Origin: Eubacteriales bacterium
GTDB lineage: Bacteria > Bacillota > Clostridia > Oscillospirales > CAG-272
Assembly (NCBI GenBank): GCA_045594445.1
Contig: JAZNYL010000092.1
Span: 787-64,786, forward strand
Direction: 5' to 3'
Length of the DNA: 64,000 nt
A program made the position numbers and the translations under genes. Below the pieces are notes generated by a model. It searched no databases. It was not told where the DNA came from and saw only the letters and a program-made list of their open reading frames with translations. Of the stretch, positions 9,684 to 59,179 are shown piece by piece. Positions within the stretch are counted from its first letter, which is position 1; every line of letters starts with the position of its first letter.

Positions 9684-10244
9684 TTATTTCAAGCTATCCA
9701 GCTTCTTTTTGATTTCCTGCATATCCGCAAGCATTTCTTCCTTACGGCGCGGGTCTCGCAAAAGTGCTGCGGGGTGGTACACCGCTGTCATGACGAATTT
9801 GCCTTTTTCAAACCATACTCCGTGCTCCTTGGAGATCTTGAAGTCGGGCTTGATCAGTCGCATGGCTGCAATTCTGCCAAGACAAACAATGATCTTGGGC
9901 TTGATCAGACGAACCTGCTCGCGCAGATAGTCAAAGCATGCGTCTTCCTCTGCGGGCAGCGGATCGCGATTCTTGGGCGGACGGCACTTCAAGATATTTG
10001 CAATATACACGTCCTCGCGCGCAATATCCACGGCGTACAGATATTTATCAAGCAGTTGACCGGCTCTGCCCACAAAGGGAGTTCCGGAAAGATCCTCCTG
10101 CTCTCCGGGGGCTTCGCCCACGAAAAGAATGTCTGCTTCACGGTTTCCCGTTCCAAACACGCAATTGGTTCTCGTTTTGGCAAGCTCGCATTTCTCGCAA
10201 GCAGCACAAGACTCGTAAAGTTGATCCCAGGTCAATGGTAGCAC
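9684..10244 (-). CDS. Uracil-DNA glycosylase, family 4
   Basis: GEAPGEQEDLSGTPFVGRAGQLL motif plus an N-terminal Cys cluster (CAACEKC...C) typical of family-4 UDGs. The start is uncertain: GTG at 10244, or TTG at 10235, which is better spaced from a GAGGTG SD. Confidence 0.85.
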   Translation of the reverse strand: MLPLTWDQLYESCAACEKCELAKTRTNCVFGTGNREADILFVGEAPGEQEDLSGTPFVGRAGQLLDKYLYAVDIAREDVYIANILKCRPPKNRDPLPAEEDACFDYLREQVRLIKPKIIVCLGRIAAMRLIKPDFKISKEHGVWFEKGKFVMTAVYHPAALLRDPRRKEEMLADMQEIKKKLDSLK

Positions 10245-10304
10245 CTCGCTTTCATGCTATCATTATACCAAATACGCGCAAGGAATGCAAGAGTTTGTCA
10301 AAAA

Positions 10305-10946
10305 TTATAGTTGTGACATCATCTGCACGGCGTTATCCTTGCAGATCAGCATTCCGTATTCACTGATATAAGTCTGAATGCTTCTTGCGTTCTCCCTCAC
10401 TCCGTACTCACAAAGAAAGCAGTATTCATCGGGAGAATACAGGGATGGTGTGGAAAAATCTCGCAAAATCAGATAGTAGGTCTGCTTCTGATCTGCATAG
10501 AGCGTGCTTTTTCCCGGAAAGCCTACCGAGAAGAGTCGCTTGCATACGCTGATGAGATCTTTGAGATTGGAAAACGAATAAGCACACATATCTCGTCCGT
10601 GCCTTTCTGTTGTGCGCAACGCGCGATTTTGCAATAAGGGCGGTACTTGCGCGGGAGGAGACGGGTGCTGACTTTGCGTTGTTTCGATTGCATCCTCTTC
10701 CTCGTCCGGCTTGGAAATAAACAGCTCGCAGCCACCGTCCGCACAAGGGTACATCTGCACGTAAAGGCGCGACATATCGCCATCAAACCCGGTCTGCTCA
10801 CGCGCATCGGACAACAGCCTGCGCAAAACGCGACGCACGTGCGCGTAGGCAAAGCTGATAGAGTCGTTATGTAAGTCGTAATAGGTCATGTCCGAGGAGG
10901 TCAGCATAATTTTTAGCTTGGAATCGCTGATTTTGATCAAATCCAT
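10305..10946 (-). CDS. mecA: Adaptor protein MecA (Clp ATPase adaptor)
   Basis: The N-terminal MDLIKISDSKLKIMLTSSDM... and the ...YVQMYPCADGGCELFISK pattern are MecA-like. An acidic/Pro linker and a C-terminal domain follow. Size 213 aa. Confidence 0.7.
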   Translation of the reverse strand: MDLIKISDSKLKIMLTSSDMTYYDLHNDSISFAYAHVRRVLRRLLSDAREQTGFDGDMSRLYVQMYPCADGGCELFISKPDEEEDAIETTQSQHPSPPAQVPPLLQNRALRTTERHGRDMCAYSFSNLKDLISVCKRLFSVGFPGKSTLYADQKQTYYLILRDFSTPSLYSPDEYCFLCEYGVRENARSIQTYISEYGMLICKDNAVQMMSQL

Positions 10947-11034
10947 ATCTAAATCCTTTCAAGGTTGCGTTTCTTACTATCATTATAAGCGAAAAGCGTG
11001 CCTTTGTGTACCCCTAAAAATATGGTAATTGTGA

Positions 11035-11063
11035 TTGACGAGGCGCGCGCCTTATGGTATAAT
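11035..11063 (+). promoter_or_regulatory. Sigma-A-type promoter of the helicase gene
   Basis: TTGACG (11035-11040), a 17-nt spacer, then TATAAT (11058-11063). This places the transcription start downstream of the 10998 start in the ORF track. Confidence 0.6.
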
Positions 11064-11093
11064 AGAAATAATAAATGCAAGGGAGGTGACGGC

Positions 11094-13460
11094 ATGCGAT
11101 ATAACGAGCAAACGGGAGCGGTTGAATTGGAGCTTGGCGAGCTGTGTGCCGTTGCTTTCGGACGCACAAACTATCGCGAGGAGCCCGCGGCAGAGCTTGA
11201 GGTGGATAAGGTTACGGCGCAAAACGGCACGTATTTTGCCGACGTGCTGCTGCAGCATACCTGCCGCTTGGCAGGCGTGCTGATCAAGGTCAGCGGACAC
11301 GCACAGGGCATTGAGCTTGACGGCGAGCGTATGATCATAGATCACAGCCACCGCGCTGCAAAGCTGCCCGCAGCGGATGAGCCGATCAGCATTCCCGTGC
11401 GCCAGCGTTGCCTTGGATATTTTCTGGCCGCAGCCAAGCAGCAAGAGCGCGTCACGCTACGCAGAATTACGGTAACGGGGACGGGTGAGAGCACGAGCGG
11501 AGAGTTTACTTACACCGCACAAACGCTCAAGGAGGAATATACCTCCATTCTTTCGCGCGCCATGCCTTATATTGAAAATTGCGTGGAGCAAAACCGTGAA
11601 GTCAAGACCCGCGCAGCTACGCTTGCGTTTCCGTATCCCGAGATCCGCGAAGGACAAGAGGAATTCATGCGCGAGTGTTATCGAGATATCATGCACGGCG
11701 GACGCTTATTTATTCAAGCACCCACAGGCATTGGCAAAACCATTTCCACCATGTATCCCGCCGTACGCGCCATGGGAAAAGGGAAATGCGATAAGATCTT
11801 TTATCTCACGGCAAAATCCAGCACGCGCCGCGAGGCGTTTGCTGCGGCCAAGCGGCTGTTTGACGCAGGTGCACCCTTGCGTACCATCGTGCTTTCCGCA
11901 AAGGAGCAGATGTGTCCGGCTGAACGCTTTACGCACCGCACCTGTAAGCATGAGTGCCCGCGCAGCCTGTCGCATACCAAGATCATGCAGGCCATCTCCG
12001 AGCTGTTGACTTTCCAGAACTGTTATACCTCGGCACATATTCGTCAGGTGGCCGAAAAATACGGCGTATGTCCGTACGAATTATCGCTTGATCTGTCCGA
12101 ATTTTGCAGTATTATCATCTGCGACTACAATTACGTGTATAACCCTGCCGTCAAGCTGCGCAGATACTTCGTGGAAAATAACGGGAAATACGTACTTCTT
12201 GTCGATGAAGCGCATAACCTGACGGATAGAGCGAGAGATATGTTTTCCAGCAATTTAAGCAATACGGATTTTGCAACCGTGCTACAAATGCTGCACGAGT
12301 CCGAGCCTTTGTATAAAAAGCTCAAGCAGAGCATGGAGGTTTTTAAAACGGTCAAACGCTATTGCCGCGACACGATGCAAAAGGGCTCTGACGGCCTGGA
12401 ATACGGCTATTATTTCTCGCGTGAGCCATTGGACGAGGTCAACGAGCCTTTGTCAACGCTTGCGTCCGGCGTCGAGAAATGGCTGAAAAATCACACTTAT
12501 GATGCACTTTATGACTGTATAGAAGTCTTTTATACAAACCTGCGCGCTTATTGCGCGACGGCAGAGCTTTACGACGTCGGCTTTGTGACCTATCTGACCG
12601 TGCAGGGCGATGAGATCACACTCAAGCAGCTTTGTCTGGATCCCAGCCGACAGCTGGAAGCTTGCCACGATAAGGCAGAATCCGTGATCATGTTCTCGGC
12701 CACGCTGACGCCACCAAGCTATTTTGCGCAAACGCTGGGCGGCGGCAAGCACGCTGTCTCGGTCAATTTTCCGTCTCCCTTTCCGCGTGAGAATCTTTGC
12801 GTGGCTGTGGCGGATGGAATCAGCACAAAATTTGAGGACAGAGAGAAATCCGTCAAAAAAACCGCCTCATATATTGCGGCATCCGTATGCGGTAAGGTAG
12901 GGAATTACATGGTGTATTTCCCGTCATATTCCTACATGGAAAAGGTGGTTGCCGCATTTACCAAACGCTATCCCGACGTGCCGATTTTGGTACAGAAGCG
13001 GGGCATGACGCAGCAGCAAAAGGAACAATTCCTGGACGCATTCTGCGCGGATAACCCCGGCATGCTGATCGGCTTTTGCGTGTTGGGCGGCTCGTTCTCA
13101 GAGGGCGTGGATCTTCCGGGCGGCAGGTTGATCGGCAGCATCATAGTGGGCGTTGGCATCCCCGGACTGTCGGACGAGCGAAACATCATTCGCGACTATT
13201 ACGCCGATCAAAACGGCATGGGCTACGAATATGCTTACGTTTACCCCGGCATGAATCACGTGTTGCAGGCAGCAGGGCGCGTCATACGTACCGACACCGA
13301 CCGTGGCATTGTGGTACTGCTTGATCAAAGATATGCCGAGCCGCGCTATACAGAGCTGTTCCCACCGCATTGGGATGACGTTCGTTTTGCAAGCGACGCG
13401 CAATCTCTTGCAAAAACAGTGGCGGAATTTTGGGAAAGCAGACAAAATCACGATAAATAA
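11094..13460 (+). CDS. ATP-dependent DNA helicase, XPD/DinG (Rad3) family, with an extra N-terminal domain of about 190 aa
   Basis: Motif I QAPTGIGKT, DEAH box (LLVDEAHNL), an Fe-S-type Cys set (CPAERF...CKHEC...CPYE) and a C-terminal VLQAAGRVIR motif. I chose the ATG at 11094 behind GGGAGG, downstream of the predicted promoter. Confidence 0.8.
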   Translation: MRYNEQTGAVELELGELCAVAFGRTNYREEPAAELEVDKVTAQNGTYFADVLLQHTCRLAGVLIKVSGHAQGIELDGERMIIDHSHRAAKLPAADEPISIPVRQRCLGYFLAAAKQQERVTLRRITVTGTGESTSGEFTYTAQTLKEEYTSILSRAMPYIENCVEQNREVKTRAATLAFPYPEIREGQEEFMRECYRDIMHGGRLFIQAPTGIGKTISTMYPAVRAMGKGKCDKIFYLTAKSSTRREAFAAAKRLFDAGAPLRTIVLSAKEQMCPAERFTHRTCKHECPRSLSHTKIMQAISELLTFQNCYTSAHIRQVAEKYGVCPYELSLDLSEFCSIIICDYNYVYNPAVKLRRYFVENNGKYVLLVDEAHNLTDRARDMFSSNLSNTDFATVLQMLHESEPLYKKLKQSMEVFKTVKRYCRDTMQKGSDGLEYGYYFSREPLDEVNEPLSTLASGVEKWLKNHTYDALYDCIEVFYTNLRAYCATAELYDVGFVTYLTVQGDEITLKQLCLDPSRQLEACHDKAESVIMFSATLTPPSYFAQTLGGGKHAVSVNFPSPFPRENLCVAVADGISTKFEDREKSVKKTASYIAASVCGKVGNYMVYFPSYSYMEKVVAAFTKRYPDVPILVQKRGMTQQQKEQFLDAFCADNPGMLIGFCVLGGSFSEGVDLPGGRLIGSIIVGVGIPGLSDERNIIRDYYADQNGMGYEYAYVYPGMNHVLQAAGRVIRTDTDRGIVVLLDQRYAEPRYTELFPPHWDDVRFASDAQSLAKTVAEFWESRQNHDK

Positions 13461-14914: not shown

Positions 14915-14937
14915 AAAACCAAAGTGAGGTGATGGGC

Positions 14938-15933
14938 ATGGGCAAAAAGGTCACGCAGGCGGCAAGCAATCCGTTTGCGTATAGCGATACCAATAAGCGC
15001 TACTATACCTACGACTATTTTCTTAAGCGCACCTTTGGCGGTAAGGTTGCCAAGCTGCCCATTGACGCGGGCTTTACATGTCCGAATATTGACGGCAAAT
15101 GCGCGCACGGCGGCTGCATTTATTGCTCGGATAAGGGAAGCGGGGATTTCGCACCGCCACCCGACGTGCCGATCCTTGAGCAGATGGAGCGATCTCATGC
15201 GTTGATCAGCGGAAAATGGAAGACCGAAAAGGTTATCCCGTATTTCCAGGCGCACACAAACACCTATGCACCGCTGAAGATCTTGCGCGAAAAATACGAG
15301 CAAGCACTCGCATACCCGGGCGTGGTGGGGCTGAATATCGCGACGCGTGCCGATTGCCTCCCGCCGGACGTGGTCGCGTATCTATCCGAGCTTGCAAAGC
15401 GCACCTATTTGACGGTTGAGCTTGGCTTGCAAAGCTCCGACGACCAAACCGCAGCACTGATCAATCGCGGACACGATTTTTCCGCCTTTGTAAAAGGCTA
15501 CCGCGCCCTGCGCGCAGCAAGTCCGGATATTCACATCTGCATTCATTTGATCCTCGGCCTGCCCGGAGAGAACGAGCAGGAAATGCTGCAGAGTGTGCGC
15601 GACGTGGCAAAATTGCACCCCGACCAGGTCAAGCTGCATCTCTTGCATGTGATCAAAAACACCGTCATGGCCGATATGTACCTTGCGGGTGAATACGAGC
15701 CCATGACGCAGCAGACGTATACCGAAATTGTGGCCAAGGCGTTGACTCTGCTGCCGGCGGACACCGTGATCGCACGCCTGACGGGTGATGGCGCGCCGGA
15801 CGCACTGCTTGCCCCCGACTGGAGCAGGCGTAAAACGGCCGTGGTCAACGACGTGGACAAAATTCTGTACCAAAATGACCTGTACCAAGGAAAATATTAT
15901 AAATCGGAGGTAGATCATGTTTCTCAAGGCTAA
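14938..15933 (+). CDS. TIGR01212-family radical SAM protein
   Basis: CPNIDGKCAHGGCIYCS cluster, followed by the FQAHTNTYAP and ELGLQS blocks characteristic of the YhcC/TIGR01212 family. I chose the ATG at 14938, 7 nt after GAGGTG. Confidence 0.85.
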   Translation: MGKKVTQAASNPFAYSDTNKRYYTYDYFLKRTFGGKVAKLPIDAGFTCPNIDGKCAHGGCIYCSDKGSGDFAPPPDVPILEQMERSHALISGKWKTEKVIPYFQAHTNTYAPLKILREKYEQALAYPGVVGLNIATRADCLPPDVVAYLSELAKRTYLTVELGLQSSDDQTAALINRGHDFSAFVKGYRALRAASPDIHICIHLILGLPGENEQEMLQSVRDVAKLHPDQVKLHLLHVIKNTVMADMYLAGEYEPMTQQTYTEIVAKALTLLPADTVIARLTGDGAPDALLAPDWSRRKTAVVNDVDKILYQNDLYQGKYYKSEVDHVSQG

Positions 15934-18013
15934 ATGGATCTGGAAGGCAGGGGAGATCCTGTCGGATGAATTTGCGGATTTCGTTGCGGAATTTGTCGCG
16001 AGCGGTGAAGCACCCTACACGCTGACAATTGCTGCGGACTCCAATTATACCGTGTATATAAACGGCGAGCTTGCAGCCTTTGGCCAGTACGCCGACTATC
16101 CGACCTACAAGATCTGTGACCGTGTGGATGTCACCAAGCTTGTCAAGGCGGGAAAGAACCGACTGGCAGTCGTGGTCTGGTATTACGGTGACGATACCCA
16201 AACCTATATTCACGGCGAGCCCGGTGTGATCTTTGAGATACGCGAGCAGGATGCGCCAATTTGCTACTCCGATGAAAGTACGCTTTCGCGGCTGTCGCGC
16301 GACTATATTTCTCACGTCAGACAGCTGATCTCGGGGCAGCTGGGCTATACCTATCACTACGATGCTACCGCATACGATGGCTTTATTGAGCAGGACGCGA
16401 CCGACAGCTTTGCGCCAAGCGTGCTCATGCCCATGATTTCAACCGATTTTACTCTGCGTCCGATCAAGATGCTGGAGCTTGCTCCGAGAACACAAGCGCA
16501 GATGTGTATGCAAGGCCTTTTTGATTACGTGGAAAAGCAGCATACAAGCCCTGATAAGATGATGCAGCACGCAGCGCTTCGCCATCGCTATCCCGAGCAG
16601 ATCTCGGATATGCGCGGATTTTTCGGCTTTGATAAGCCTGTGAATTTCAAAACAGAGGACGCGGCACAGGGCATCTTCTTTGTTGTGGATCTCGGACAGG
16701 AGTGGGCGGGATTCCTTGATTTTGATATTGAAGTTCCGTATGATTGCCGCATTGATATCGGCTACGGCGAGCATCTGGCAGACGGCAGATGCCGCACCTC
16801 GGTACGCGGCTTCTCGGCAGATTATAAAGCAAAAAAGGGAAGAAACCAATACATGCACACGTTCCGTCGCTTTGGCTGCAGATACGTGCAGTTCTTTGTT
16901 CACGCCACCGAATTCACCGTGCATTACGCAGGTCTGAGGCCTACGCTGTATCCCGTGACCGCCAAGAAATTTGATAAGGGAAACCTGCTGCAGAACACTA
17001 TCTACGAGGTCTGCACAAACACGCTGATCCAATGCATGCACGAGCACTACGAGGATTGCCCCTGGAGAGAGCAGGCGCTCTATTGTATGGACTCGCGCAA
17101 TCAAATGCTGTGTGGCTATTATGCTTTTGGCGAAAAGGAATTTCCACGCGCCAACCTCAAGCTGATCTCCAAGGGCTTGCGCCCCGACGGTATTTTGACG
17201 CTTTGTTATCCAGCGGGCAAGGATTTTCCCATTCCTTCATTTTCTACCGTATATTTTATTCAGATGCAGGAATATATCGAGCACACGGGCGACGTTACGC
17301 TGGCAGAGGAATGCTATCCCGTTCTGGATACCATCATCCATACCTTTATAGGGAAACTGCAGGACAGCGGCCTGATCGAGAATTTCTACGGTGAGGGAGG
17401 CTACTGGAACTTCTACGAGTGGAGCCCCGGCATGAACGGCCACTTCTTTGAAAAGGTGCGCAGCATGGAGTGTCCCATCAACGCATTCTTCTCGCTTGCT
17501 CTGCAGAGCATGACCAAGATCTGCGATGCGCTGGGTAAGACCCGGGAGGCAGAGGAGTACAGCGAGCTTTCCAAGAGTGTCAACGCTGCAATCGCAAAAG
17601 AGTTCTACAACCCCGAAACCAAGCTTTTTGAGTCGTTTGACAATCGCTGCAGAGGAGAATACAGCGTACTGACCAACGCGCTTTGCATGCTGTGCGGTGC
17701 TGCCGATACGGTGGACAAGACCAATATTCTTCGTATTCTCGCAACCAACGGGAAAGACAACTGTGGATACACAGTACATCCCAATACACTTAGCATGAAC
17801 TCCTTCCGCTTTGACGCGCTGCTGGCATACGACAGGGAAGCGTACGCTAAGGTGATCATCGAAGAGATCGATCGCGACTATTTCTATATGCTGCGTAACG
17901 GTGCAACTACCTTCTGGGAGACCATCATTGGCCTTTCCGATTTCGGACACGCCGCAAGCCTGTGTCACGGTTGGAGCGCTTTGCCGATCTACTACTACGA
18001 AATACTGCTCTAA
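15917..18013 (+). CDS. GH78-like (alpha-L-rhamnosidase-like) six-hairpin glycoside hydrolase, cytoplasmic
   Basis: 698-aa ORF with no signal peptide. The N-terminal AKWIW..., the TLTIAADSNYTVYINGE block and the C-terminal ASLCHGWSALPIYYY are typical of bacterial rhamnosidase-like proteins. It overlaps the upstream gene by 17 nt, with a GGAGG SD. Confidence 0.55.
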   Translation: MFLKAKWIWKAGEILSDEFADFVAEFVASGEAPYTLTIAADSNYTVYINGELAAFGQYADYPTYKICDRVDVTKLVKAGKNRLAVVVWYYGDDTQTYIHGEPGVIFEIREQDAPICYSDESTLSRLSRDYISHVRQLISGQLGYTYHYDATAYDGFIEQDATDSFAPSVLMPMISTDFTLRPIKMLELAPRTQAQMCMQGLFDYVEKQHTSPDKMMQHAALRHRYPEQISDMRGFFGFDKPVNFKTEDAAQGIFFVVDLGQEWAGFLDFDIEVPYDCRIDIGYGEHLADGRCRTSVRGFSADYKAKKGRNQYMHTFRRFGCRYVQFFVHATEFTVHYAGLRPTLYPVTAKKFDKGNLLQNTIYEVCTNTLIQCMHEHYEDCPWREQALYCMDSRNQMLCGYYAFGEKEFPRANLKLISKGLRPDGILTLCYPAGKDFPIPSFSTVYFIQMQEYIEHTGDVTLAEECYPVLDTIIHTFIGKLQDSGLIENFYGEGGYWNFYEWSPGMNGHFFEKVRSMECPINAFFSLALQSMTKICDALGKTREAEEYSELSKSVNAAIAKEFYNPETKLFESFDNRCRGEYSVLTNALCMLCGAADTVDKTNILRILATNGKDNCGYTVHPNTLSMNSFRFDALLAYDREAYAKVIIEEIDRDYFYMLRNGATTFWETIIGLSDFGHAASLCHGWSALPIYYYEILL

Positions 18014-18084: not shown

Positions 18085-18113
18085 TTTACGGAATTCGGGT
18101 TTTGTGCTATAAT
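18085..18113 (+). promoter_or_regulatory. Sigma-A-type promoter of paralogue 1
   Basis: TTTACG (18085-18090), a 17-nt spacer, then TATAAT (18108-18113) with a TG extension (gTGcTATAAT). Confidence 0.65.
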
Positions 18114-18166: not shown

Positions 18167-19768
18167 ATGAAAAGATTTCTTTCCGTGCTGCTCGCTTCTC
18201 TGATGGTTCTGTCCCTGGCAGCTGCTATGGTAGTTTCTACCTCCGCAGCTCTCGAAGGCGACTGGGCATCCTCCAGAAGCGGCAGTGACTACGAAGACGA
18301 AGGCAGCTACTGCCCCGCAGCAGGCTACCACTATGATCCCGAGCTGGGCTTCGTTCTTGATCCCCCCGTTTATGCAGACCAAACCACTCCCTTCGTTCAG
18401 ATGCACACCAGAAATCCTCTGGATCTGAAGGCTAACAACGATGGCAACGGTAACTCCGTTTCCGTTAAGGTAAGAGTACTTGAGTACGCTTACGACGGCG
18501 GCGAAGGCAAGGACCAGTGGATCGCGTTCACTCTGAACAGCCAGCCCATGTCCACTCCCGGCTCCACCAAGTACGGCGAAGGCCTCTGCATCCTGATCCG
18601 TGGCGGCGGCTTCGGTTCCGCACAGGTTCAGCCCTTCTACGTAGATGACGTAACCGGCAAGAGCTTCTCTCCTGCAGCTGCTTTCCCCTCCGTTGATGTT
18701 CCCATGAACGATCAGGATCAGGAAGAGTACACCTTTACCGTGAAGTACGTTGACGGTGGCTACGTTTACGCTGTAAACGGCACCGAGTTCGTTGCTGACG
18801 AAGCTTTGAACGCTCACTTTGACAGAGTATTTGCTGAAGGCGCATACGTTGGCGTTATTTGCCAGACCGGTGTTGCTAACACCAAGATTCAGCTCGCTAT
18901 CACCGAGTGGCAGGGCGACCTCCCCGTAGGTGACGACTCCGCAGATCCCGAAGAGGACCTCCGCCAGAAGGCTCCCATCGCTGATTCCGCAACCATTGAG
19001 GCTAACATGCCTGCAGTTCTGTGGGATTCTACCTGCAGAGACTTCAGAAAGATCTCCGTTTCCGGCGGTGAATACACCATCAACGATGACGGTTCCGTTA
19101 AGATCGCTACCCAGACTGTTTCTCCTTACGTTTCCTTCGGCGTTAAGTCCGAGGTTTCCTACGAAGCAGCTGATTTCCCCTACGTTGCAGTTCTGACCAG
19201 AAACTGCTGGGCTAACAGCGGTAACGTTTACTACTGCGCAGGTGATATTCTTTCCGCAGAGAACTCCTACAGCGAGAACTGGGATCCCACCGAGTATGAT
19301 TTCGGCGGCGGTTGGACCATGGGTATCATGGACTTCTCCGATTACACCGATGATGATGCAGAGACCAACGTAGGCGGTTGGGAAGGCAGAATCAACAGCA
19401 TCCGTGTTGGTTATGACTTTGCTGCTGACGACATCGCTAACGAAGAATACAACAATTTCGACATCGCATTCATCGGCGCATTCCGTTCCGTTGAAGAAGC
19501 TACCGCTTACACTCAGGCTTGGCTGGCTGCTAAGGGCTACAGCGCAGACGTTGTAACCGAGCCCGAGACCACCAAGGCTCCCGAGACCGAGCCCGAAACC
19601 ACCAAGGCTCCCGAGACCAACGCTCCCGATGCTACCGAAGCTCCTTCCGATGGTGAAGTTACCACCGAGGCTGAAAAGTCCGGCGGCTGCGGCTCCATCG
19701 TTGCTGCTCCCATCGTTGCTCTGATCGCTATGCTGGGCGTTGCATTCGTTGCAAAGAAGAGAGACTAA
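18167..19768 (+). CDS. Secreted two-domain protein of unknown function with a Thr/Pro/Glu stalk and a C-terminal GGCGS-TM-KKRD tail (paralogue 1 of 3)
   Basis: The ATG at 18167 follows AAAGGAGA. Signal peptide MKRFLSVLLASLMVLSLAAAMVVSTSAA, then a mature LEGDW start. The C-terminus is SGGCGSIVAAPIVALIAMLGVAFVAKKRD. Codon usage resembles rpsB/tsf. The 18128 start in the ORF track precedes the SD. Confidence 0.85.
   Translation: MKRFLSVLLASLMVLSLAAAMVVSTSAALEGDWASSRSGSDYEDEGSYCPAAGYHYDPELGFVLDPPVYADQTTPFVQMHTRNPLDLKANNDGNGNSVSVKVRVLEYAYDGGEGKDQWIAFTLNSQPMSTPGSTKYGEGLCILIRGGGFGSAQVQPFYVDDVTGKSFSPAAAFPSVDVPMNDQDQEEYTFTVKYVDGGYVYAVNGTEFVADEALNAHFDRVFAEGAYVGVICQTGVANTKIQLAITEWQGDLPVGDDSADPEEDLRQKAPIADSATIEANMPAVLWDSTCRDFRKISVSGGEYTINDDGSVKIATQTVSPYVSFGVKSEVSYEAADFPYVAVLTRNCWANSGNVYYCAGDILSAENSYSENWDPTEYDFGGGWTMGIMDFSDYTDDDAETNVGGWEGRINSIRVGYDFAADDIANEEYNNFDIAFIGAFRSVEEATAYTQAWLAAKGYSADVVTEPETTKAPETEPETTKAPETNAPDATEAPSDGEVTTEAEKSGGCGSIVAAPIVALIAMLGVAFVAKKRD
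19559..19618 (+). repeat. In-frame 30-bp tandem duplication within the stalk-coding region of paralogue 1
   Basis: GAGCCCGAGACCACCAAGGCTCCCGAGACC (19559-19588) is repeated at 19589-19618 with one mismatch. It encodes EPETTKAPET twice. Confidence 0.9.
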
Positions 19769-19798
19769 TTCTTAACTGAATTATCACCCTGAATTCAA

Positions 19799-19829
19799 GG
19801 GGCTGACGCGATGCGTCAGCCCCTTTTTT
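19799..19829 (+). terminator. Rho-independent terminator of paralogue 1
   Basis: GGGGCTGACGC-gat-GCGTCAGCCCC followed by TTTTTT. Confidence 0.9.
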
Positions 19830-19879: not shown

Positions 19880-19908
19880 TTTACAGTTTTTTGAGTTAGT
19901 GATATAAT
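19880..19908 (+). promoter_or_regulatory. Sigma-A-type promoter of paralogue 2
   Basis: TTTACA (19880-19885), a 17-nt spacer, then TATAAT (19903-19908) with a TG extension (gTGaTATAAT). The flanking CACCATTTACAG is shared with the paralogue 3 promoter. Confidence 0.65.
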
Positions 19909-19946: not shown

Positions 19947-21506
19947 ATGAGAAAATTTTTGACAATCATGCTTGCTATGTGTCTGTTGCTTGCAACTATG
20001 ACCATGCTGGCAATCCCTGCAAGCGCCGCTGAGGTAGAAGGAGACTGGGTGACCTCCAGAGCAGGCGACGCATATGAAGAGGGCGTTACGGATTACACTC
20101 CCGCTGCAGGCTATACGTACACTCCCGAGGGCTTCCAGACGATTGCTCCCGATTTTACTAACTGCAATCCTTACGTTCAGGCACACACAAAGAATGCCTA
20201 TAACCTCAAGGACCCCAATGCTGACGGAAACGGCAACGCGCTTTCCGTAAAGTTTACCGTCCAGGATTTTGCATACGGCGGCGAATTCGGTAATAAGGAC
20301 GAATGGGTCGCCATTACGCTCAACAGCGAGCCTGTTGTAACCCAGGGTAACCCTGAATACGGCGCCGGTCTGTGCATTCTGATCCGTGGTAACGGAGGCG
20401 GTTCTGCAACAGGCCAGCCCCATTACGTCGATAAAGAAAACAATCGCTTCACCCTGTTCATTTCCGGTCAGATCAATCCCGAGCTCAATGACAAGGATCA
20501 GGAGGTTTACACCTTCAGCATCAAGCATGATGGAACTAACTACGTGATGAATTTGTGCGGCACCGAGTTTACCGATCCTACCGGTGTTCTTAACACCATT
20601 TTTGACGAGCAGTGTGCAAATGGGGCATATCTCGGTATCACTCTGATGTCCACCGAAGCAGAAACCACCGCTGCTTTTGTAATCAACGAGTTCCAGGGCG
20701 CTGTTCCTTACGGTGAGGATAGCGCTGAGCCCGAGGCAAACGTTAAGAATTTTGCAGAGATTGCTGATTCTGCAACTGTTCCCGCAGGCCAGCCTGCAGT
20801 AAAGTGGGATGGCAATATTGAGCAGTGCGATAAGATCTCCATCGCTCAGGCTGACTATACTGTCCAGGAGAGCGGCCTTGTTACCTTGGTATGCAATGGC
20901 AATGCCCCCTATATCAACTTCATGCTCAAAAACGAAATCTCTTATGAAGCAACCGATTTCCCGGTTGTCGCAATCCTGACAAGAAATTGCTGGGCGTCTT
21001 CGGGCAGCATCTATTACATGTCCGGTAAGACCCTGGGATGCGGTGCTGATAACCGGATGGACTTCATTGTCGATGAGATTGAACTTGGCGAGGGCTGGGG
21101 ACTTTCCCTGGTAGATCTTAGAGAAGATCCCGAGTGGGAGGGAAGAATCAACGGTATCCGTTGCGATTTTTCTGAAGTAGATTATACGGATGAGCAATAC
21201 AATACGTTTGACGTTGCATACTTTGCCGCATTCCGTACCGAAGAGGATGCACAGCAGTATGCAAAGGATTACCTGATCGCGCTGCTTGGCAAGCTGCCCG
21301 AGACCACCGAAAAGCCTACCGAAGAGCCTACCACCGAAGCTCCCACTACCGAGGCAAAGACCGATGCTCCCACCGAAGAGATTCCCTCCGAGGAAGTTTC
21401 CACCGATGCAGAGCAGTCCGGCGGCTGCAAGTCCGTAGCGATCGCTCCCGTTGCGGCACTGATCGCATTTGTCGGCGTTGCATTCGTTGCAAAAAAGAAG
21501 GACTAA
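19947..21506 (+). CDS. Secreted two-domain protein, paralogue 2 of 3
   Basis: SD is AAAGGAGA. The signal peptide ends ...AIPASAA and the mature protein starts EVEGDW. It shares conserved blocks with paralogues 1 and 3. The C-terminus is SGGCKSVAIAPVAALIAFVGVAFVAKKKD. Confidence 0.85.
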   Translation: MRKFLTIMLAMCLLLATMTMLAIPASAAEVEGDWVTSRAGDAYEEGVTDYTPAAGYTYTPEGFQTIAPDFTNCNPYVQAHTKNAYNLKDPNADGNGNALSVKFTVQDFAYGGEFGNKDEWVAITLNSEPVVTQGNPEYGAGLCILIRGNGGGSATGQPHYVDKENNRFTLFISGQINPELNDKDQEVYTFSIKHDGTNYVMNLCGTEFTDPTGVLNTIFDEQCANGAYLGITLMSTEAETTAAFVINEFQGAVPYGEDSAEPEANVKNFAEIADSATVPAGQPAVKWDGNIEQCDKISIAQADYTVQESGLVTLVCNGNAPYINFMLKNEISYEATDFPVVAILTRNCWASSGSIYYMSGKTLGCGADNRMDFIVDEIELGEGWGLSLVDLREDPEWEGRINGIRCDFSEVDYTDEQYNTFDVAYFAAFRTEEDAQQYAKDYLIALLGKLPETTEKPTEEPTTEAPTTEAKTDAPTEEIPSEEVSTDAEQSGGCKSVAIAPVAALIAFVGVAFVAKKKD

Positions 21507-21520
21507 AATATCATAATTTT

Positions 21521-21556
21521 AAGGGCTGACGCTTTGGCGTCAGCCCTTGTTATTTT
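21521..21556 (+). terminator. Rho-independent terminator of paralogue 2
   Basis: AAGGGCTGACGC-tttg-GCGTCAGCCCTT followed by gTTATTTT. The CTGACGC/GCGTCAG core is the same as in the other two terminators. Confidence 0.8.
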
Positions 21557-21593: not shown

Positions 21594-21622
21594 TTTACAG
21601 AAAAATGAAAAAGTGATATAAT
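21594..21622 (+). promoter_or_regulatory. Sigma-A-type promoter of paralogue 3
   Basis: TTTACA (21594-21599), a 17-nt spacer, then TATAAT (21617-21622) with a TG extension (gTGaTATAAT). Confidence 0.65.
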
Positions 21623-21661: not shown

Positions 21662-23200
21662 ATGAAAAGATTGCTTGTTTTAGCTTTGACAGCAGTGATG
21701 ATTCTGTCCGTTGCATCCGTGATGATCATTCCCGGCGCAGCAGCGGTTGAAGGTGACTGGGTTGCAACCCGCGCAGCTGACGACTATCTGGATCCGGATA
21801 GCTACAGACCGTATTGCGGTTTTCACTATGAAGTAGACAAGGGCCTTGTGTTGGATTCTGCTGACTATACCAACAACACTCCCTATACGCACATTCATAC
21901 CAAGACCCCTTATAATCTCAAGGACACCAACGCAGCAGGTAACGGCAGATCCATCTCCTTGGAGTTTACCGTAACCGATTTTGCTTATGAAGGCAGTGAC
22001 CACTGGGTCGGCATCTCTCTGCACAGCAAAGAGATCTTCGCTCCCGGTCAGAAGGGATATGGCGAGGGCGTTTCCGTACTGATCCGCGGAGCAGGCGAAG
22101 GCGCTGCTGTTGCGCAGTTCTTCTATCTCAATGATGACAGAGGATACACGCTGTTCAGCCAGCAGCACGTCAACATCCCGCTCAACGAGCAGGGCCAGGA
22201 AATCTATACCTTTGAGGTAGAGTACACAGGCTCCGGATATGCTTTTTACGTATGCGGCACCAAGTTTGAGGACGTGACTAAGTTGGCGGACGAGACTCTG
22301 GATACTTACTGTGCAGACGGCGCATACGTGGGTATTTCCTTCTATACTACCGCGTCCGGTTCTTCCATCGGAGCGAACATCAGCAAGTTCCAGGGTGAGG
22401 TTCCTTTTGGTGAGGACAGCATGGAGCCCGAGGAAAACCGTAACAACTTCGCGCCTATCGCGGATTCTTCCACTGTTCCGGAAGGTCAGCCTGCACTGAT
22501 CTGGAATTCTGCTAAGGAGCAGTTCAACCAGTTCCAGAGCTCAAATATCGACCTTGTTGCCAATGACGACGGTACTATGCGTGCAACTGCATTGACCGCT
22601 TCTGGTTACATAATCTTCTCTCCTAAGGTTGCCGTTTCCTACGAGGCATCGGATTTCCCCGTGATTGCGATTCTGACCAGAAATTGCTTTGCAGAATCCG
22701 GCCTGGTATTCTATAGTGCAGGTAAGAATTTGAGTGCTCAGCCCGATTGCAGCTGTGAGATTGATATTGCTGAGTATGAGTACGGTGATGAATGGTGCAT
22801 GGGTATTCTGGATCTGACCGGTGACCTTGACTGGCAGGGCAGAGTCAACATGATTCGTATGGACATTCAGAACGTTGACTATACCGATGAAGAAATGAAG
22901 TATTATGATATTGCATACATCGCATGCTTCCGCACCATTGAGGATGCTGAGCAGTATGCAAAGGATTATCTGATCGGCCTGCTTGGTGCAATGCCCGAGA
23001 CGACCGAGAAGGAAACCAATCCTCCCAAGACCGAAGCTCCCGAAACCGAAGCACCTACTGCAGAGACCGAAGCAGAGGGCGGTGAGCAGACCACCGAGGC
23101 AGAGCAGGAGAATAAGGGCTGCGGTTCTGTGATCGCTGCTCCCATAGTTGCTCTGATCGCGCTGCTGGGTATTGCATTCGTTGCAAAAAAGAGAAATTGA
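21662..23200 (+). CDS. Secreted two-domain protein, paralogue 3 of 3
   Basis: SD is AAGGAGAG. The signal peptide ends ...IIPGAAA and the mature protein starts VEGDW. The C-terminus is KGCGSVIAAPIVALIALLGIAFVAKKRN. Confidence 0.85.
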   Translation: MKRLLVLALTAVMILSVASVMIIPGAAAVEGDWVATRAADDYLDPDSYRPYCGFHYEVDKGLVLDSADYTNNTPYTHIHTKTPYNLKDTNAAGNGRSISLEFTVTDFAYEGSDHWVGISLHSKEIFAPGQKGYGEGVSVLIRGAGEGAAVAQFFYLNDDRGYTLFSQQHVNIPLNEQGQEIYTFEVEYTGSGYAFYVCGTKFEDVTKLADETLDTYCADGAYVGISFYTTASGSSIGANISKFQGEVPFGEDSMEPEENRNNFAPIADSSTVPEGQPALIWNSAKEQFNQFQSSNIDLVANDDGTMRATALTASGYIIFSPKVAVSYEASDFPVIAILTRNCFAESGLVFYSAGKNLSAQPDCSCEIDIAEYEYGDEWCMGILDLTGDLDWQGRVNMIRMDIQNVDYTDEEMKYYDIAYIACFRTIEDAEQYAKDYLIGLLGAMPETTEKETNPPKTEAPETEAPTAETEAEGGEQTTEAEQENKGCGSVIAAPIVALIALLGIAFVAKKRN

Positions 23201-23212
23201 ATCTGATATTTG

Positions 23213-23243
23213 GAAAGGACTGACGCCAAGCGTCAGTCCTTTC
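23213..23243 (+). terminator. Terminator-like hairpin of paralogue 3
   Basis: GAAAGGACTGACGC-caa-GCGTCAGTCCTTTC. The T-tract is weak (it merges with the next promoter's TTGACA), so termination efficiency is uncertain. Confidence 0.6.
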
Positions 23244-23272
23244 TTGACAAATAAAAGAGAATGTAGTATAAT
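23244..23272 (+). promoter_or_regulatory. Consensus sigma-A promoter of the 23306 lipoprotein gene
   Basis: Perfect TTGACA (23244-23249), a 17-nt spacer, then perfect TATAAT (23267-23272). Confidence 0.7.
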
Positions 23273-23305
23273 AGATACATTACACCAAGGAAAGGAAATG
23301 TTTCC

Positions 23306-25357
23306 ATGAACACAAAAAGAATCCTGTCATTATTGGCTCTTTGTCTTTGCCTTGTCATGATGCTGCAGTTTGCTGCATGCAATCAGGGCGGAACCGGTGA
23401 AGAGCAGTCTTCTTTGGATCAGACTGATACAAAAAATACAGACACCGAAACCCAAGCTCCCGAAACAGAGCAGGGCTCGGAAGAGAGTACCGAAGATCAG
23501 ACTCTGCCTGCAACCCCCGATTTCACGGTTGCTGCCAAGCCCTCGATCAGCTTTGACAAGACCGTACAGGCAACTGAAAACGGTTCTGCATACGACGTCA
23601 CGACCGCTACCGGCCTTGCATATTCCGCAACCGGATATAAGAGCTTTGCTGACGGTGCGTTTACAATCAATACAGGGCTTACGGTCACACTCGGCGATCA
23701 ATTTGCCGATACCTTTAACCGTCTGACGCTTTGCTACGTATCCGACGCGCCCATGGAGTGCACCGTGACTTACGAGAGAAACGGCAGAACATTGAACGAT
23801 TTGTTCTATCTGGAGGCAGGAGAGCAGACCTTCTGCGCGCTGACCAAGGGATATCTGGAGGGCATGAAAGCCTCCAAGCTGACCTCGATCTCCTTTGATA
23901 CCTGCGAAGAGGTTGACGCCAAGTTCGTGCTTTGCGACGTCAAGACCGAGGAATACGAGGTCTATGCGGACGAAGTATATTACATCGAAAACGAAAGCTA
24001 CGTGCTTGGCGTGCGCCTTTCCTGGGGCGGCGGCATTTGCTATCTGCGCGACCTCAAAAACAGAATCGGCGGCATTGAAAACCTGATCAACCAGGCTGAT
24101 ACCGGCAGACTTGTACAGCAGTCCTATTACGGCACGCACGGCAACGGTGAATACCAGGACGGCGATTACAACGGCGTACGCTGGCCTTATAACCCTGTTC
24201 AGGGCGGTGACGTACACGGCAACCCCAGCCGTATCATTGATATCGTGGTTGGAACGCACTCGCTTTACGTCAAGGCGCAGCCGCAGGATTGGGGACACGA
24301 CGGTGAGCTGACCATCAGCTACATGGAGAATATTTACGTGCTGGAAGAGGATCACATTCGTGTGGATAACAGATTCGTGGATTTCTCCGGTTGGGAGCAC
24401 AGATATGCCAATCAGGAGCTGCCCGCCTTCTATACACTGAGCTTCCTTGGTGAATTCACCTATTATGCAGGCTCCAAGCCTTGGCAGGACGAGCCGCTGA
24501 CCTCCAGAAAGGATCTGAACTTCTGGGGCGATGCTGCTTATCACGATGATTGCACCTTCAAGCTTCGATACAGTAACACCGAGACTTGGTGTGCATGGTC
24601 CAACCGCTACGTAGATTACGGAATCGGCTTGTTCGTTCCCGGTGTAGACGTATTTTTGGCCGGCAGACATGCATATAACGGTAGTAAGGATGCATACAAC
24701 GGTGCTACCAACTACGTAGCCCCCTTGTGTACCATCAAGCTTGAATCCTTTGAGCCGATCGAATACAGCTACATGATGACCACGGGCTCGATTGAAGAGA
24801 TCCGAAGCGTATTTAAAGCCAATAAGGATTTTGCAACAAACGAAACTCTGCATCACAACTATATCAGTGACCGACTGGAGGACGAGGGCGCAGCAATCAA
24901 GATGGATATGCTTCAGTTTGCTGATAAAAGCAGCACACTCAAGCTGACGCCCACCAGCAATACCACCGTAGGCTTCAGCGATGAGCAAAAGGCTGCATTG
25001 CTGACCATCGTAGCAGCATCTGACCCGCACGTCACCATCGATTACACCAAGTCAGATCCCACACTCAAAGCAGAGGATTATTCCGTGATCAAGATCACGT
25101 ATATGATCCCCACCACCAACAGTATGAAATATTACACGGCAGAGCTGTTCTTGTCAACCGGCACGTCTATGGGAGCCGAGGGCGGCAAGTCCGTTCGTAC
25201 CGAGCTCGTGGCAGACGGTGAGTATCATACCGCAGAAATTAAGGTATCGAGCCTGAATTTCTGGAGTGGTAATGTCAATGCGATCCGCTTTGACTACTTT
25301 GATGCTTGTGCCGAGGGCGATGTCATGTACGTGCAGTCCATCGAGCTGAGTAACTAA
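23306..25357 (+). CDS. Large lipoprotein of unknown function; its C-terminal module resembles domain 2 of the paralogue trio
   Basis: Signal peptide with lipobox (LQFAAC) followed by a Glu/Thr/Gln linker. The central region contains GRLVQQSYYG...RWPYNPVQGGD. The C-terminus ...NFWSGNVNAIRFDYF...VMYVQSIELSN parallels W[EQ]GR[IV]N.IR in the trio. Confidence 0.75.
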   Translation: MNTKRILSLLALCLCLVMMLQFAACNQGGTGEEQSSLDQTDTKNTDTETQAPETEQGSEESTEDQTLPATPDFTVAAKPSISFDKTVQATENGSAYDVTTATGLAYSATGYKSFADGAFTINTGLTVTLGDQFADTFNRLTLCYVSDAPMECTVTYERNGRTLNDLFYLEAGEQTFCALTKGYLEGMKASKLTSISFDTCEEVDAKFVLCDVKTEEYEVYADEVYYIENESYVLGVRLSWGGGICYLRDLKNRIGGIENLINQADTGRLVQQSYYGTHGNGEYQDGDYNGVRWPYNPVQGGDVHGNPSRIIDIVVGTHSLYVKAQPQDWGHDGELTISYMENIYVLEEDHIRVDNRFVDFSGWEHRYANQELPAFYTLSFLGEFTYYAGSKPWQDEPLTSRKDLNFWGDAAYHDDCTFKLRYSNTETWCAWSNRYVDYGIGLFVPGVDVFLAGRHAYNGSKDAYNGATNYVAPLCTIKLESFEPIEYSYMMTTGSIEEIRSVFKANKDFATNETLHHNYISDRLEDEGAAIKMDMLQFADKSSTLKLTPTSNTTVGFSDEQKAALLTIVAASDPHVTIDYTKSDPTLKAEDYSVIKITYMIPTTNSMKYYTAELFLSTGTSMGAEGGKSVRTELVADGEYHTAEIKVSSLNFWSGNVNAIRFDYFDACAEGDVMYVQSIELSN

Positions 25358-49368: not shown

Positions 49369-50457
49369 TTGGATATCCTGTTACAAAACCCTGCGATTAA
49401 GGGCGCGCTGTATATCGTGCTTGCCATTGGTATTTTCAGCGCCCTGATCATGATTCACGAATTCGGACATTATCTTACGGCCAGACTCTGCGGCGTTACC
49501 GTGCACGAATTTGCACTCGGTATGGGCCCGCAGATCTTTTCGCGCGTTTCCAAAAAGTCCGGCATTCGATATTCAGTCCGACTGTTTTTGATCGGCGGAT
49601 ACGTCAGCATGGATGGTGAGGACGGCGATTCGGAAAACCCGAATGCGTTTTGCAACAAGAATATCTGGAAGCGCATTCTGATCATTGTAGCAGGTGCGGG
49701 AATGAATATCCTGCTTGGCTTTATCGCGATGTTTATTCTGACCACCATCACCGTCGCATCTACCGACGGTGCGCTGTTGCCCACCAACGTGGTAGCCGAG
49801 TTTGTGGATGGCGCAACCTCCAATCAAGCAGGCGAATCCGGCTTGATGGAAGGCGACCGCATCGTGATCGTGGATGGCGTACCGGTGTTTACGGGATACG
49901 ATCTTATCTATGAAATCACCAACAGCGCCTACGAGCCTGTTGACATGGTCGTGATCAGAAACGATAATATATGCCGCCTGAATGATGTTACTTTCCCGAC
50001 AACCGAGGAAAACGGCGTCGTATTCGGCTCATACGACTTCAAAGTATACGGAAAATCACCCAATGTGTTCAATTTGGCCACATACTCGGTCAACCGCTCT
50101 ATATCCACCGTGAAAATGGTGTACGATTCGCTGTTTGATCTGCTGCGAGGCAGATACGGTGCGGAGGCAGTTTCCGGTCCCGTAGGAACCACACAGGTCA
50201 TTGGTGAAGCTGCCCAGCAGGGCGGGGCAACGCTGCTTTATCTGGTCGCTGTCATTACCATCAACTTGGGTGTATTCAATTTATTGCCCGTACCCGCGCT
50301 GGATGGCGGCAGACTTTTGTTCCTGGTCATTGAGCTGTTCCGAGGAAAGCCGATCAACCGTAACCTGGAGGGATACGTCCATTTCGTCGGAATATTGATT
50401 CTGTTTGCACTTATGGCCATTATTTCAATCAAGGACGTAATAGGATTATTCACATGA
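49369..50457 (+). CDS. rseP: RIP metalloprotease RseP/RasP (site-2 protease)
   Basis: The HEFGHY zinc motif lies in TM1, followed by a PDZ-like middle region and the C-terminal NLLPVPALDGG motif. TTG start at 49369 after AAGAGGAG. Confidence 0.9.
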   Translation: MDILLQNPAIKGALYIVLAIGIFSALIMIHEFGHYLTARLCGVTVHEFALGMGPQIFSRVSKKSGIRYSVRLFLIGGYVSMDGEDGDSENPNAFCNKNIWKRILIIVAGAGMNILLGFIAMFILTTITVASTDGALLPTNVVAEFVDGATSNQAGESGLMEGDRIVIVDGVPVFTGYDLIYEITNSAYEPVDMVVIRNDNICRLNDVTFPTTEENGVVFGSYDFKVYGKSPNVFNLATYSVNRSISTVKMVYDSLFDLLRGRYGAEAVSGPVGTTQVIGEAAQQGGATLLYLVAVITINLGVFNLLPVPALDGGRLLFLVIELFRGKPINRNLEGYVHFVGILILFALMAIISIKDVIGLFT

Positions 50458-58456: not shown

Positions 58457-59179
58457 TTAGTCGTCGTTGGGCTTTCTGGTGATTGCCACGTTGAGATTGC
58501 TGTTGCGGACGCGGATATCGTCGATCAGTGCTTTCTGTGCCTTGGGATTCTTGAGGCGGATTCTGTAGCGCAGCTCGTTGAGCGTGCCGTATTCAACCGA
58601 CTTGACGCGCTCAAGGTGGTAGCCCTTGCAATGCTGCTTGAGAACTTCATCAAATACACCGTCGAAATCAAGATCTTCGGGTACCATAATGGTCAGTTTG
58701 AGCGATCCACCGCCAATTTTATCAAATCCGCACAGGGAAGCGATAATAATAACCGCCAAGATAATACCGATCGCAATGGCTGCAAAGCCGATACCGCCCG
58801 TGCCGCAAGCCATACCGACTGCTGCAGAAAGATAAATGAAGATCAGATCCTGAGGGCTTTCCACAGAATGTCTGAAACGGATGAGCGCAAGACCGCCGCC
58901 GATGCTGATGGCACGAGCGAGGTTAGAGCCGACCGAGATAACGATCACCGAAACGATGGGGCCCATGAGCAAAATGGTCAGAAGCGACTTGGTAGAATAG
59001 CCTCTTTTACGGTTGGTAAGTATGTAGACCAGGGTGACAAGCAGGCACATGCCAATGCTGGCACCGATGAGCGCAAGCGTTTTGCCAAGAGTCAGTGTAG
59101 AAACACCGGTGTTTGCCGTGTCATAATAAATTTCGATGTTGACCAATAGCTGGTTAAACAGATTCTCTAAAAACTGCAT
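58457..59179 (-). CDS. DUF4956 domain-containing membrane protein
   Basis: TM-rich N-terminal half containing SNLARAISIGGGLALIRFRHSVESPQDLIFIY, the DUF4956 signature region, then a soluble C-terminal domain. Confidence 0.75.
   Translation of the reverse strand: MQFLENLFNQLLVNIEIYYDTANTGVSTLTLGKTLALIGASIGMCLLVTLVYILTNRKRGYSTKSLLTILLMGPIVSVIVISVGSNLARAISIGGGLALIRFRHSVESPQDLIFIYLSAAVGMACGTGGIGFAAIAIGIILAVIIIASLCGFDKIGGGSLKLTIMVPEDLDFDGVFDEVLKQHCKGYHLERVKSVEYGTLNELRYRIRLKNPKAQKALIDDIRVRNSNLNVAITRKPNDD

Follow-up and report, generated by a model that had tools for sequence, protein, structure and literature searches.

The 64,000-nucleotide stretch of DNA analyzed here, referred to as the window (Eubacteriales bacterium, GenBank assembly GCA_045594445.1, contig JAZNYL010000092.1, positions 787 to 64,786 of the forward strand), contains three tandem plus-strand open reading frames (ORFs) of 546, 519, and 512 amino acids (aa), all of which close with the same 27-residue C-terminal tail followed by a stop codon. 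In each of the three paralogues the tail consists of a G-C-[GK]-S motif, a 19-residue hydrophobic helix, and a terminal basic cluster, KK[KR][DN]. Paralogue 1 (18167..19768, plus strand; 533 aa from its likely start) comprises a signal peptide, two beta-sandwich domains, a stalk rich in Thr, Glu, Ala, and Pro, and the Cys-containing tail. Its start most likely lies at M14 of the 546-aa ORF (18167, MKRFLSVLL...), which matches all homologues and corrects an earlier reading of this DNA made from the sequence alone. The stalk (19532..19684, aa 456 to 506) is of low complexity and predicted to be disordered. It is followed by the G-C-G-S motif (19685..19696; Cys508 is encoded by 19688-19690), the helix IVAAPIVALIAMLGVAFVA (19697..19753, 19 aa, including a helix-destabilizing Pro), and, by translation, the basic cluster KKRD with the stop codon at the extreme C terminus (19754..19768). 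Paralogue 2 (19947..21506, plus strand, 519 aa) ends with GCKSVAIAPVAALIAFVGVAFVAKKKD and stop at 21423-21506, with its Cys at 21426-21428, and paralogue 3 (21662..23200, plus strand, 512 aa) ends with GCGSVIAAPIVALIALLGIAFVAKKRN and stop at 23117-23200, with its Cys at 23120-23122. The translations of 19679-19768 (SGGCGSIVAAPIVALIAMLGVAFVAKKRD), 21417-21506 (SGGCKSVAIAPVAALIAFVGVAFVAKKKD), and 23114-23200 (KGCGSVIAAPIVALIALLGIAFVAKKRN), each closed by a stop codon, reproduce exactly the three tails that the sequence-only reading had placed at these positions.

A codon-level pattern of the tail (GGN TGY, two free codons, hydrophobic NYN codons, and AAR AAR ARR RAY TAR) matched the window at three sites alone, 19685-19768, 21423-21506, and 23117-23200, and had no match in 100 dinucleotide-preserving shuffles of the window. 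No further ORF in the window ends in a hydrophobic-plus-basic C terminus. Identity among the three paralogues is 59 to 76% in the tail and 42 to 46% in the ectodomain. Between paralogues the tails differ by 3 to 6 synonymous codons each, so their likeness does not stem from recent gene conversion.

The bodies of the three proteins had no match in Pfam or NCBIfam, a PDB sequence search was empty, and tblastn against plasmids gave no match. A signal peptide with an AXA site is readable in the sequences of the array proteins. With an alignment of 30 sequences as input, AlphaFold2 gave a model of paralogue 1 (mean pLDDT, 82.9) in which a signal peptide is followed by two beta-sandwich domains at approximately residues 30 to 455, a disordered stalk (466 to 512), and a terminal helix (513 to 532); pLDDT values are below 50 over residues 466 to 517. 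Foldseek searches with the ectodomain returned L-type lectin, GH16, and ConA-like folds and CBM86, and the top matches were lectin modules of the Gram-positive surface adhesins SraP, YwfG, and Aap. The three genes most likely encode Sec-exported, lectin- or CBM-like surface proteins that bind glycans and belong to an uncultured Clostridia bacterium of the Oscillospiraceae type. All of their homologues are unnamed proteins from metagenomes or metagenome-assembled genomes, and the labeled sources are Clostridia, Ruminococcaceae, or Oscillospiraceae bacteria.

The Cys residue is invariant in homologues that were retrieved through the ectodomain, a set in which the Cys count is free of bias from the tail (approximately 109 sequences). 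It is present in the tails of 73/73 homologues from a full-length search and of 36/36 further homologues from a profile search, which reach down to 26 to 28% identity and include architectures of 861 to 1,010 aa. Cys508 is also among the 27 invariant columns of the 30-sequence family alignment. The sequence-only reading had asked whether the motif might not be conserved in orthologues; the Cys, at least, was found in every homologue tail inspected. The mean frequency of the top residue is 0.55 in the tail, 0.58 in the ectodomain, and 0.41 in the stalk, which varies freely and is the least conserved region. The contrast drawn earlier between a shared tail and a freely diverged stalk holds for the stalk, but overall conservation in the tail is close to that in the ectodomain, and the tail positions that stand out are the invariant Cys and one invariant Lys.

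The spacing within the tail is nearly fixed. The Cys lies at position -26 or -25 from the C terminus, and the first Lys follows it by 22 residues in 128 of 172 unique tails and by 21 residues in 36 of them. Gly precedes the Cys in 182 of 211 tails, the residue at +1 is Gly in 64%, followed in frequency by Lys and Ala, and the residue at +2 is Ser in 74%, followed by Gly and Ala. The motif had been read as GGC[GK]S from the three paralogues; its general form is G-C-x-[SAG], and only the Gly-Cys pair is general. The hydrophobic run begins directly after the motif, with no spacer. Residue 7 after the Cys is Pro, Gly, or Ser in 87 of 89 tails (Pro in paralogue 1), and small residues recur along the helix (Gly or Ala at 5 and 16 after the Cys, Ala at 10, and mostly Ala at 13). 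The ending KKKD is found in 105 of 172 unique tails, and the last residue after the Lys run is acidic (Asp or Glu) in most of them (KKKD, KKRD, KKKE, or KKED). Across 128 tail proteins, the 30-residue stretch ahead of the Cys is composed mainly of Thr (20%), Glu (18%), Ala (18%), and Pro (10%).

The same tail is found on proteins that are otherwise unrelated. An exhaustive search of 1.84 billion representative sequences with a 30-position tail profile (E value of ≤1e-3) gave 184 hits, and 128 of the 145 newly listed proteins carry the tail at their exact C terminus. Tail proteins of at least 230 aa form 16 clusters without BLAST similarity outside the tail, and the unrelated carriers include F5/8 type C and FIVAR proteins. 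A 1,239-aa protein with an NAGPA domain and the tail was found separately on another contig (L148), back-to-back with an unrelated tail protein. A signal-peptide-like N terminus is present in 62 of the 128 tail proteins, and 26 of these 62 fit a lipobox-like pattern. An in-frame degenerate DNA pattern applied to metagenome contigs found 13 contigs (1 to 5 kb), all 13 with true tails at the ends of ORFs, and a search with a 40-aa, tail-only alignment yielded only 23 very short proteins. Sixteen profile hits with multiple matching stretches (P0074, P0076, P0079, and others) were discarded because they contain internal repeats that match profile positions 3 to 20 and are not tails; P0196, whose single match is internal rather than C terminal, was discarded as well. 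The profile search that the sequence-only reading had proposed returned at least 16 unrelated clusters of carriers, to which the separately found NAGPA protein is added, a distribution which, on sequence comparison, identifies the tail as a modular domain rather than a family relic.

Among the tail proteins are approximately 20 tiny ones of 65 to 120 aa (P0084, P0086, P0095, P0097, P0126, P0133, P0162, P0163, P0224, and others). These consist of an N-terminal lipoprotein signal (..AACG.. or ..TGCG..), a stalk rich in Thr, Pro, Glu, and Ala, and the Cys tail; they lack a globular domain and would be doubly anchored acidic linkers if both ends were lipidated. Orphan mini-ORFs that encode the tail alone occur on contig L138 (ENA ERZ27317464 k141_6200) at 10001-10120 and 11960-12055. 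One, of 39 aa (MLRAHHLSPAKGGCGSAIGFGAVAVLTAAAACVALKKKN), overlaps the stop codon of a GH78-like gene, and the other, of 31 aa (MAVAGCASAVGYCVVAIMAAIAAAVALKKKD), lies 8 nucleotides after the gene for a 547-aa member of the family that itself ends in the tail. This layout recurs on 12 contigs from several samples, including L139-L143, and the tail-only mini-ORFs could be either remnants of deleted paralogues or real mini-genes.

No curated model of a sorting domain describes the tail. Neither the 51 tails searched alone nor the three full proteins reached the cutoff of any model in NCBIfam release 20 (June 2026, which holds the recent GVDTG_CTERM, PVV_CTERM, and Heimdall-CTERM models) or in Pfam; the scan suggested by the sequence-only reading, against LPXTG, NPXTG, PGF-, PEP-, PEF-, GlyGly-, MYXO-, Synerg-CTERM, and other models, was therefore negative throughout. 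Below the cutoff, the nearest profile resemblance that includes the Cys is to Synerg-CTERM (TIGR04564), matched by 10 of 41 tails at 16 to 18.7 bits (cutoff, 22.5) over positions 3 to 26 of the 27-position model, with the best match (E value of 1.3e-3) over positions 4 to 26. The most frequent sub-threshold match was to Rumino_NPXTG (NF033846; 25 of 41 tails; best score, approximately 17 bits; cutoff, 23.5). A few tails matched LPXTG_anchor (TIGR01167) at 12.6 to 14 bits (cutoff, 15.9), and no tail contains an LPXTG or NPXTG pentapeptide. Matches to PGF_CTERM (TIGR04126; 8.5 to 17.4 bits; cutoff, 24.5) are limited to model positions 7 to 24, the helix and basic part, and those to the Pfam model for PGF-CTERM (PF18204; 13.3 to 15.4 bits; cutoff, 18.8) do not cover the Pro-Gly-Phe motif. 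The HVO_2072 model was matched at 15 to 19 bits to its C-terminal end, as were three MXAN/Mrt-dependent family models at 11 to 14 bits (cutoffs, 150 to 440), and further matches below the cutoff were to cyano_PEP (2 of 41 tails), PEF-CTERM (3 of 41 tails), and GG_III-CTERM. MYXO-CTERM (TIGR03901) gave no domain hit, and GlyGly-CTERM and Firmicu-CTERM gave no match, at an E value of ≤10. A full-text search of the literature returned no account of a signal of this type from Clostridia or Bacillota. In all likelihood, the tail is a modular C-terminal domain that occurs lineage-wide, has no curated model, and is built like a sorting signal.

Four tripartite C-terminal signals with an invariant Cys have been defined, namely, MYXO-, JDVT-, Synerg-, and CGP-CTERM, each of which is predicted to be cut by a cognate intramembrane endopeptidase of the CPBP/Rce1 type, probably after lipid attachment to the Cys (Haft, bioRxiv 10.1101/2023.06.07.544157). 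MrtX has been found to cleave MYXO-CTERM in a Cys-dependent manner (Guo, Haft and Wall, mBio 2025, PMC11980579). The tail has the defining layout of this class: it lies at the extreme C terminus, and its invariant-Cys motif abuts a single helix that is followed by a short basic cluster (here Lys-rich, with a terminal acid). It is also borne, like the signals of this class, by many unrelated secreted proteins (at least 16 clusters and the NAGPA protein). Signals that are cleaved by enzymes lying deep within the membrane typically have no spacer (Haft, bioRxiv 10.1101/2023.06.07.544157). The Gly-Cys core of the tail resembles the GC(GC) of MYXO-CTERM. Its helix-kinking residue and its best Cys-inclusive profile score are shared with Synerg-CTERM, whose helix has an invariant Pro, and the Thr-rich region before it recalls CGP-CTERM, which is preceded by a Thr/Ser-rich stretch (Haft, bioRxiv 10.1101/2023.06.07.544157). 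The tail differs from the class in that its basic cluster is Lys-rich and ends in Asp or Glu rather than being Arg-rich, and in that it fails every existing model (Synerg-CTERM at no more than 18.7 bits versus 22.5; no MYXO-CTERM domain hit). The hosts differ as well: the known signals belong to Myxococcota, Synergistota, various Gram-negative bacteria, and Thermococcales, whereas the tail belongs to uncultured Clostridia/Oscillospiraceae that are presumably monoderm and have no type II secretion (T2SS) step. Firmicutes and Clostridia are not mentioned in the paper on the Cys signals (Haft, bioRxiv 10.1101/2023.06.07.544157).

The sequence-only reading had taken PGF-CTERM, the signal of the haloarchaeal S-layer glycoprotein processed by archaeosortase A (ArtA), as the closest analogy. 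In both, a Thr-rich stalk that is probably glycosylated leads into a tripartite tail, and cleavage is expected to leave a lipid anchor at the C terminus. PGF-CTERM has no Cys, however, the tail has no Pro-Gly-Phe, and its host is bacterial. PGF-CTERM is not the closest analogue; the matches to it cover the helix and basic part and miss the PGF motif. The tail is probably best classed with the Cys-containing tripartite signals of the CPBP/myxosortase type, among which MYXO-CTERM had been listed by the sequence-only reading without being singled out. The broader view of that reading, that the tail looks like a sorting signal, stands insofar as the domain is uncurated, conserved at its Cys, and modular; its cleavage and modification are steps that we infer.

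On balance, we lean slightly toward the interpretation that the tail is a processed sorting signal, modified at its Cys and then cleaved. In the proposed mechanism, the protein would be exported by Sec and cleaved by signal peptidase, and its C-terminal helix would then halt translocation, so that the Lys cluster stays in the cytoplasm and the Cys lies at the outer interface of the membrane, a topology expected from the positive-inside rule. The Cys thiol would then be modified, most likely with a lipid, and a membrane-embedded endopeptidase would remove the helix together with KKKD. As with MYXO-, Synerg-, JDVT-, and CGP-CTERM, the enzyme may be a "myxosortase" of the CPBP/Rce1 type, whose gene would lie at another genomic location. 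The mature protein would be held through its new C-terminal Cys, with the disordered Thr/Glu/Ala/Pro stalk bearing the glycan-binding domains through the wall. Several observations support a sorting signal: the Cys is invariant in the ectodomain-derived homologues while the stalk varies; the Cys-to-Lys geometry is fixed and the motif abuts the helix; Pro, Gly, or Ser at +7 is as expected of substrates of intramembrane proteases; the same tail occurs on BLAST-unrelated secreted families; and the resemblance to Synerg-CTERM includes the Cys, with MrtX as a precedent.

Other observations weigh against processing. The tail passes no curated model. In a single-membrane bacterium, an uncleaved helix already suffices as an anchor. 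The tail-profile hits were partly selected for having the Cys, so its invariance among them is partly circular, and the unbiased evidence is the ectodomain-derived set. The known Cys signals have Arg-rich clusters, whereas the cluster here is Lys-rich with a strongly conserved terminal acid (KKKD-COOH); a segment of a sorting signal that is to be cut off and discarded is seldom so well conserved, and no explanation considered here covers this. No gene for a CPBP protein (PF02517), sortase, rhombosortase, rhomboid, or exosortase was found in the window, where 34 of approximately 50 ORFs, including every one with multiple transmembrane helices, were scanned against Pfam, most of the others were named from syntenic contigs or operon position, and 6 short nonmembrane ORFs were left out. 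Ten neighborhoods of tail genes from several families likewise contain no PF02517, sortase, rhomboid, or exosortase gene (approximately 250 kb in total, including 8 kb of flanks on metagenome contigs L122-L134 that were scanned for tails only), and no archaeosortase is encoded in the window or the inspected loci. The tail genes in these neighborhoods sit amid housekeeping genes. The absence of an enzyme near them is expected if a housekeeping sorting enzyme is encoded elsewhere and is also compatible with there being no enzyme. The Pfam scan agrees with the sequence-only reading that the window has no sortase, exosortase, or rhombosortase gene and that its sole intramembrane protease is RseP of family M50 (49369-50457). 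As a specific processing enzyme, RseP was rejected because it belongs to the universal housekeeping cluster cdsA-dxr-rseP-ispG-polC (cdsA and rseP identified by Pfam and the others by position).

The main rival explanation, which we consider rather unlikely, is that the tail is an uncleaved C-terminal transmembrane anchor, a cassette spread among surface-protein genes by recombination, in which the Cys would act without proteolysis through S-acylation, helix capping, metal or thiol chemistry, or contact with a partner membrane protein. The sufficiency of a helix with a positive-inside cluster in a monoderm and the lack of an enzyme in any neighborhood inspected are consistent with such an anchor. 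The highly conserved KKKD at the extreme C terminus would suit a retained, functional cytoplasmic end, the spacing of small residues could form a surface for helix packing, and the tail-only mini-ORFs of 39 and 31 aa suggest recombination or deletion events from which tails remain. What an anchor leaves unaccounted for is the presence of the Cys, without exception and at a constant distance from the Lys cluster, in approximately 109 homologues and at least 16 families, the Gly at -1, and the near-obligatory Pro, Gly, or Ser kink; moreover, the layout of the tail equals that of signals shown or predicted to be cleaved.

It is improbable that the tail is a divergent cell wall signal of the sortase type, cut after the Cys and linked to peptidoglycan, with Cys-Gly in the place of the Thr-Gly of NPXTG or LPXTG. 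The hosts are Bacillota, whose surface proteins usually depend on sortases, and the tail shares with LPXTG/NPXTG signals the order of motif, helix, and basic end. From the helix through KKKD, the tail is similar to the Ruminococcus NPXTG model, which was matched below the cutoff more often than any other; these alignments begin with the Gly of NPXTG (model position 5), which falls opposite the residue that follows the Cys. Some tails score 12.6 to 14 bits against LPXTG_anchor (cutoff, 15.9). These scores all fall below the cutoffs, however, and come from the helix and basic part. The tail has no Pro-containing pentapeptide, with no Pro or Leu/Asn at P3/P4 and polar, variable residues before the Gly-Cys pair, and Gly occupies +1 in less than two-thirds of the tails. 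In contrast to LPXTG signals, there is no spacer between motif and helix, and no sortase is encoded in the window or the inspected neighborhoods.

Least probable, by a little, is processing by another known membrane enzyme, be it an archaeosortase or exosortase (acting on PGF-, PEP-, or Firmicu-CTERM), a rhombosortase (acting on GlyGly-CTERM), or Lgt/Lsp acting on a "reverse lipobox": the sub-threshold PGF_CTERM, PEF-CTERM, and GG_III-CTERM matches are confined to the helix and basic part, Firmicu-CTERM and GlyGly-CTERM are not matched, no such enzyme gene was seen nearby, and the likeness to a lipobox, in which the Cys at the outer-leaflet end of a helix is preceded by Gly, Ala, or Ser and followed by Gly or Ser, as in lipoproteins of the same metagenomes (..LAACGG.. 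and ..LTGCGG..), is offset by charged or polar rather than hydrophobic residues at -3 and -2 and by a reversed order, with a C-terminal helix that follows the Cys and a basic end in the cytoplasm.

If the processed-signal interpretation is carried to the level of a system, the tail may, tentatively, represent the first Cys-type C-terminal sorting system in monoderm Bacillota. Such a "GC-CTERM" system would be lineage-wide in uncultured Oscillospiraceae-like Clostridia of the gut and rumen. It would leave glycan-binding surface proteins, including the mini-proteins of 65 to 120 aa anchored at both ends, attached at their C termini by a lipid or otherwise linked through the Cys, and it would depend on a dedicated, as yet unnamed membrane enzyme, perhaps from a new branch of the CPBP/myxosortase group or perhaps of an unrelated kind. 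The set of proteins displayed at a cell's surface depends on C-terminal sorting signals, and every such signal discovered has in turn revealed a further processing enzyme (sortase, exosortase, archaeosortase, rhombosortase, and myxosortase). Descriptions of the Cys-containing class have so far been limited to diderm bacteria and Thermococcales, with MrtX as the sole case examined by experiment; if the interpretation is correct, a member that is clean, abundant, and easily modeled would extend the class to the Bacillota. A hidden Markov model of the tail would annotate more than 100 "hypothetical" surface proteins (128 new representative clusters), many of them lectin- or CBM-like and encoded next to glycoside hydrolases. 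The tail would also turn the search for the enzyme into a straightforward problem of phylogenetic profiling, and it offers a test of whether the CPBP proteases of Firmicutes, which are very numerous and mostly without a function on paper, act as sorting enzymes.

Promoter-like sites precede each of the three paralogues on the plus strand, judged by consensus match alone: TTTACG-17-TATAAT with a TG at 18085..18113 for paralogue 1, and TTTAC[AG]-17-TATAAT preceded by TG at 19880-19908 for paralogue 2 and at 21594-21622 for paralogue 3. Strong terminator-like hairpins follow paralogue 1 (19797..19825, with a T-run) and paralogue 2 (21520-21549). The presence of separate promoter-like sites and terminator-like hairpins suggests that the three paralogues form three separate transcription units.

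Upstream of the array on the same strand lie genes identified by Pfam as encoding a radical SAM protein (Radical_SAM and Radical_SAM_C domains, 14929-15933) and a GH78-like protein of the alpha-L-rhamnosidase fold (15917-18013), the latter apparently cytoplasmic, with no N-terminal signal peptide obvious by eye. This pair precedes the array in L001, L136, L137, L138, and L149, even at approximately 30% family identity, and it is retained where the opposite flank of the array differs. The association may reflect a functional link, such as glycan capture and use, or mere deep synteny.

Downstream of the array (23306..25357, plus strand) is a gene for a 683-aa lipoprotein-like protein with an LQFAAC lipobox, no Pfam family, and no Cys tail, which may belong to the same surface module. 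Its place is taken by proteins of similar size, 684/689 aa in L001 and 679 aa in L149. The near-identical syntenic contig L149 (GCA_965122925.1, CBCPWK010000001.1) has four tail carriers to the three in the window. The fourth paralogue (P0289, 386 aa, 10001-11161) lies between the 512-aa gene and the gene for the 679-aa lipoprotein, and its linker is not rich in Thr, Pro, and Glu (..LIAELFGGCRSEITIP..KKKD). The window lacks this gene, and its 105-bp gap at 23200-23306 contains nothing but the perfect promoter (TTGACA-17-TATAAT) of the lipoprotein gene.

Three genes downstream of the array, on the minus strand, is a gene for a 948-aa membrane protein of the YfhO family (28433-31279, 605 bits). 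YfhO proteins glycosylate teichoic acids in other Firmicutes. A role for this protein in glycosylating the Thr-rich stalks is conceivable; no link is claimed, because the gene is syntenic in the close relatives L001 and L149 alone and is absent near the divergent arrays of L136 and L137. Farther away, a gene for a VTC-domain protein (58457-59959, minus strand, 157 bits) adjoins one for a DUF4956 protein with four transmembrane helices, and this pair is unrelated to the tails.

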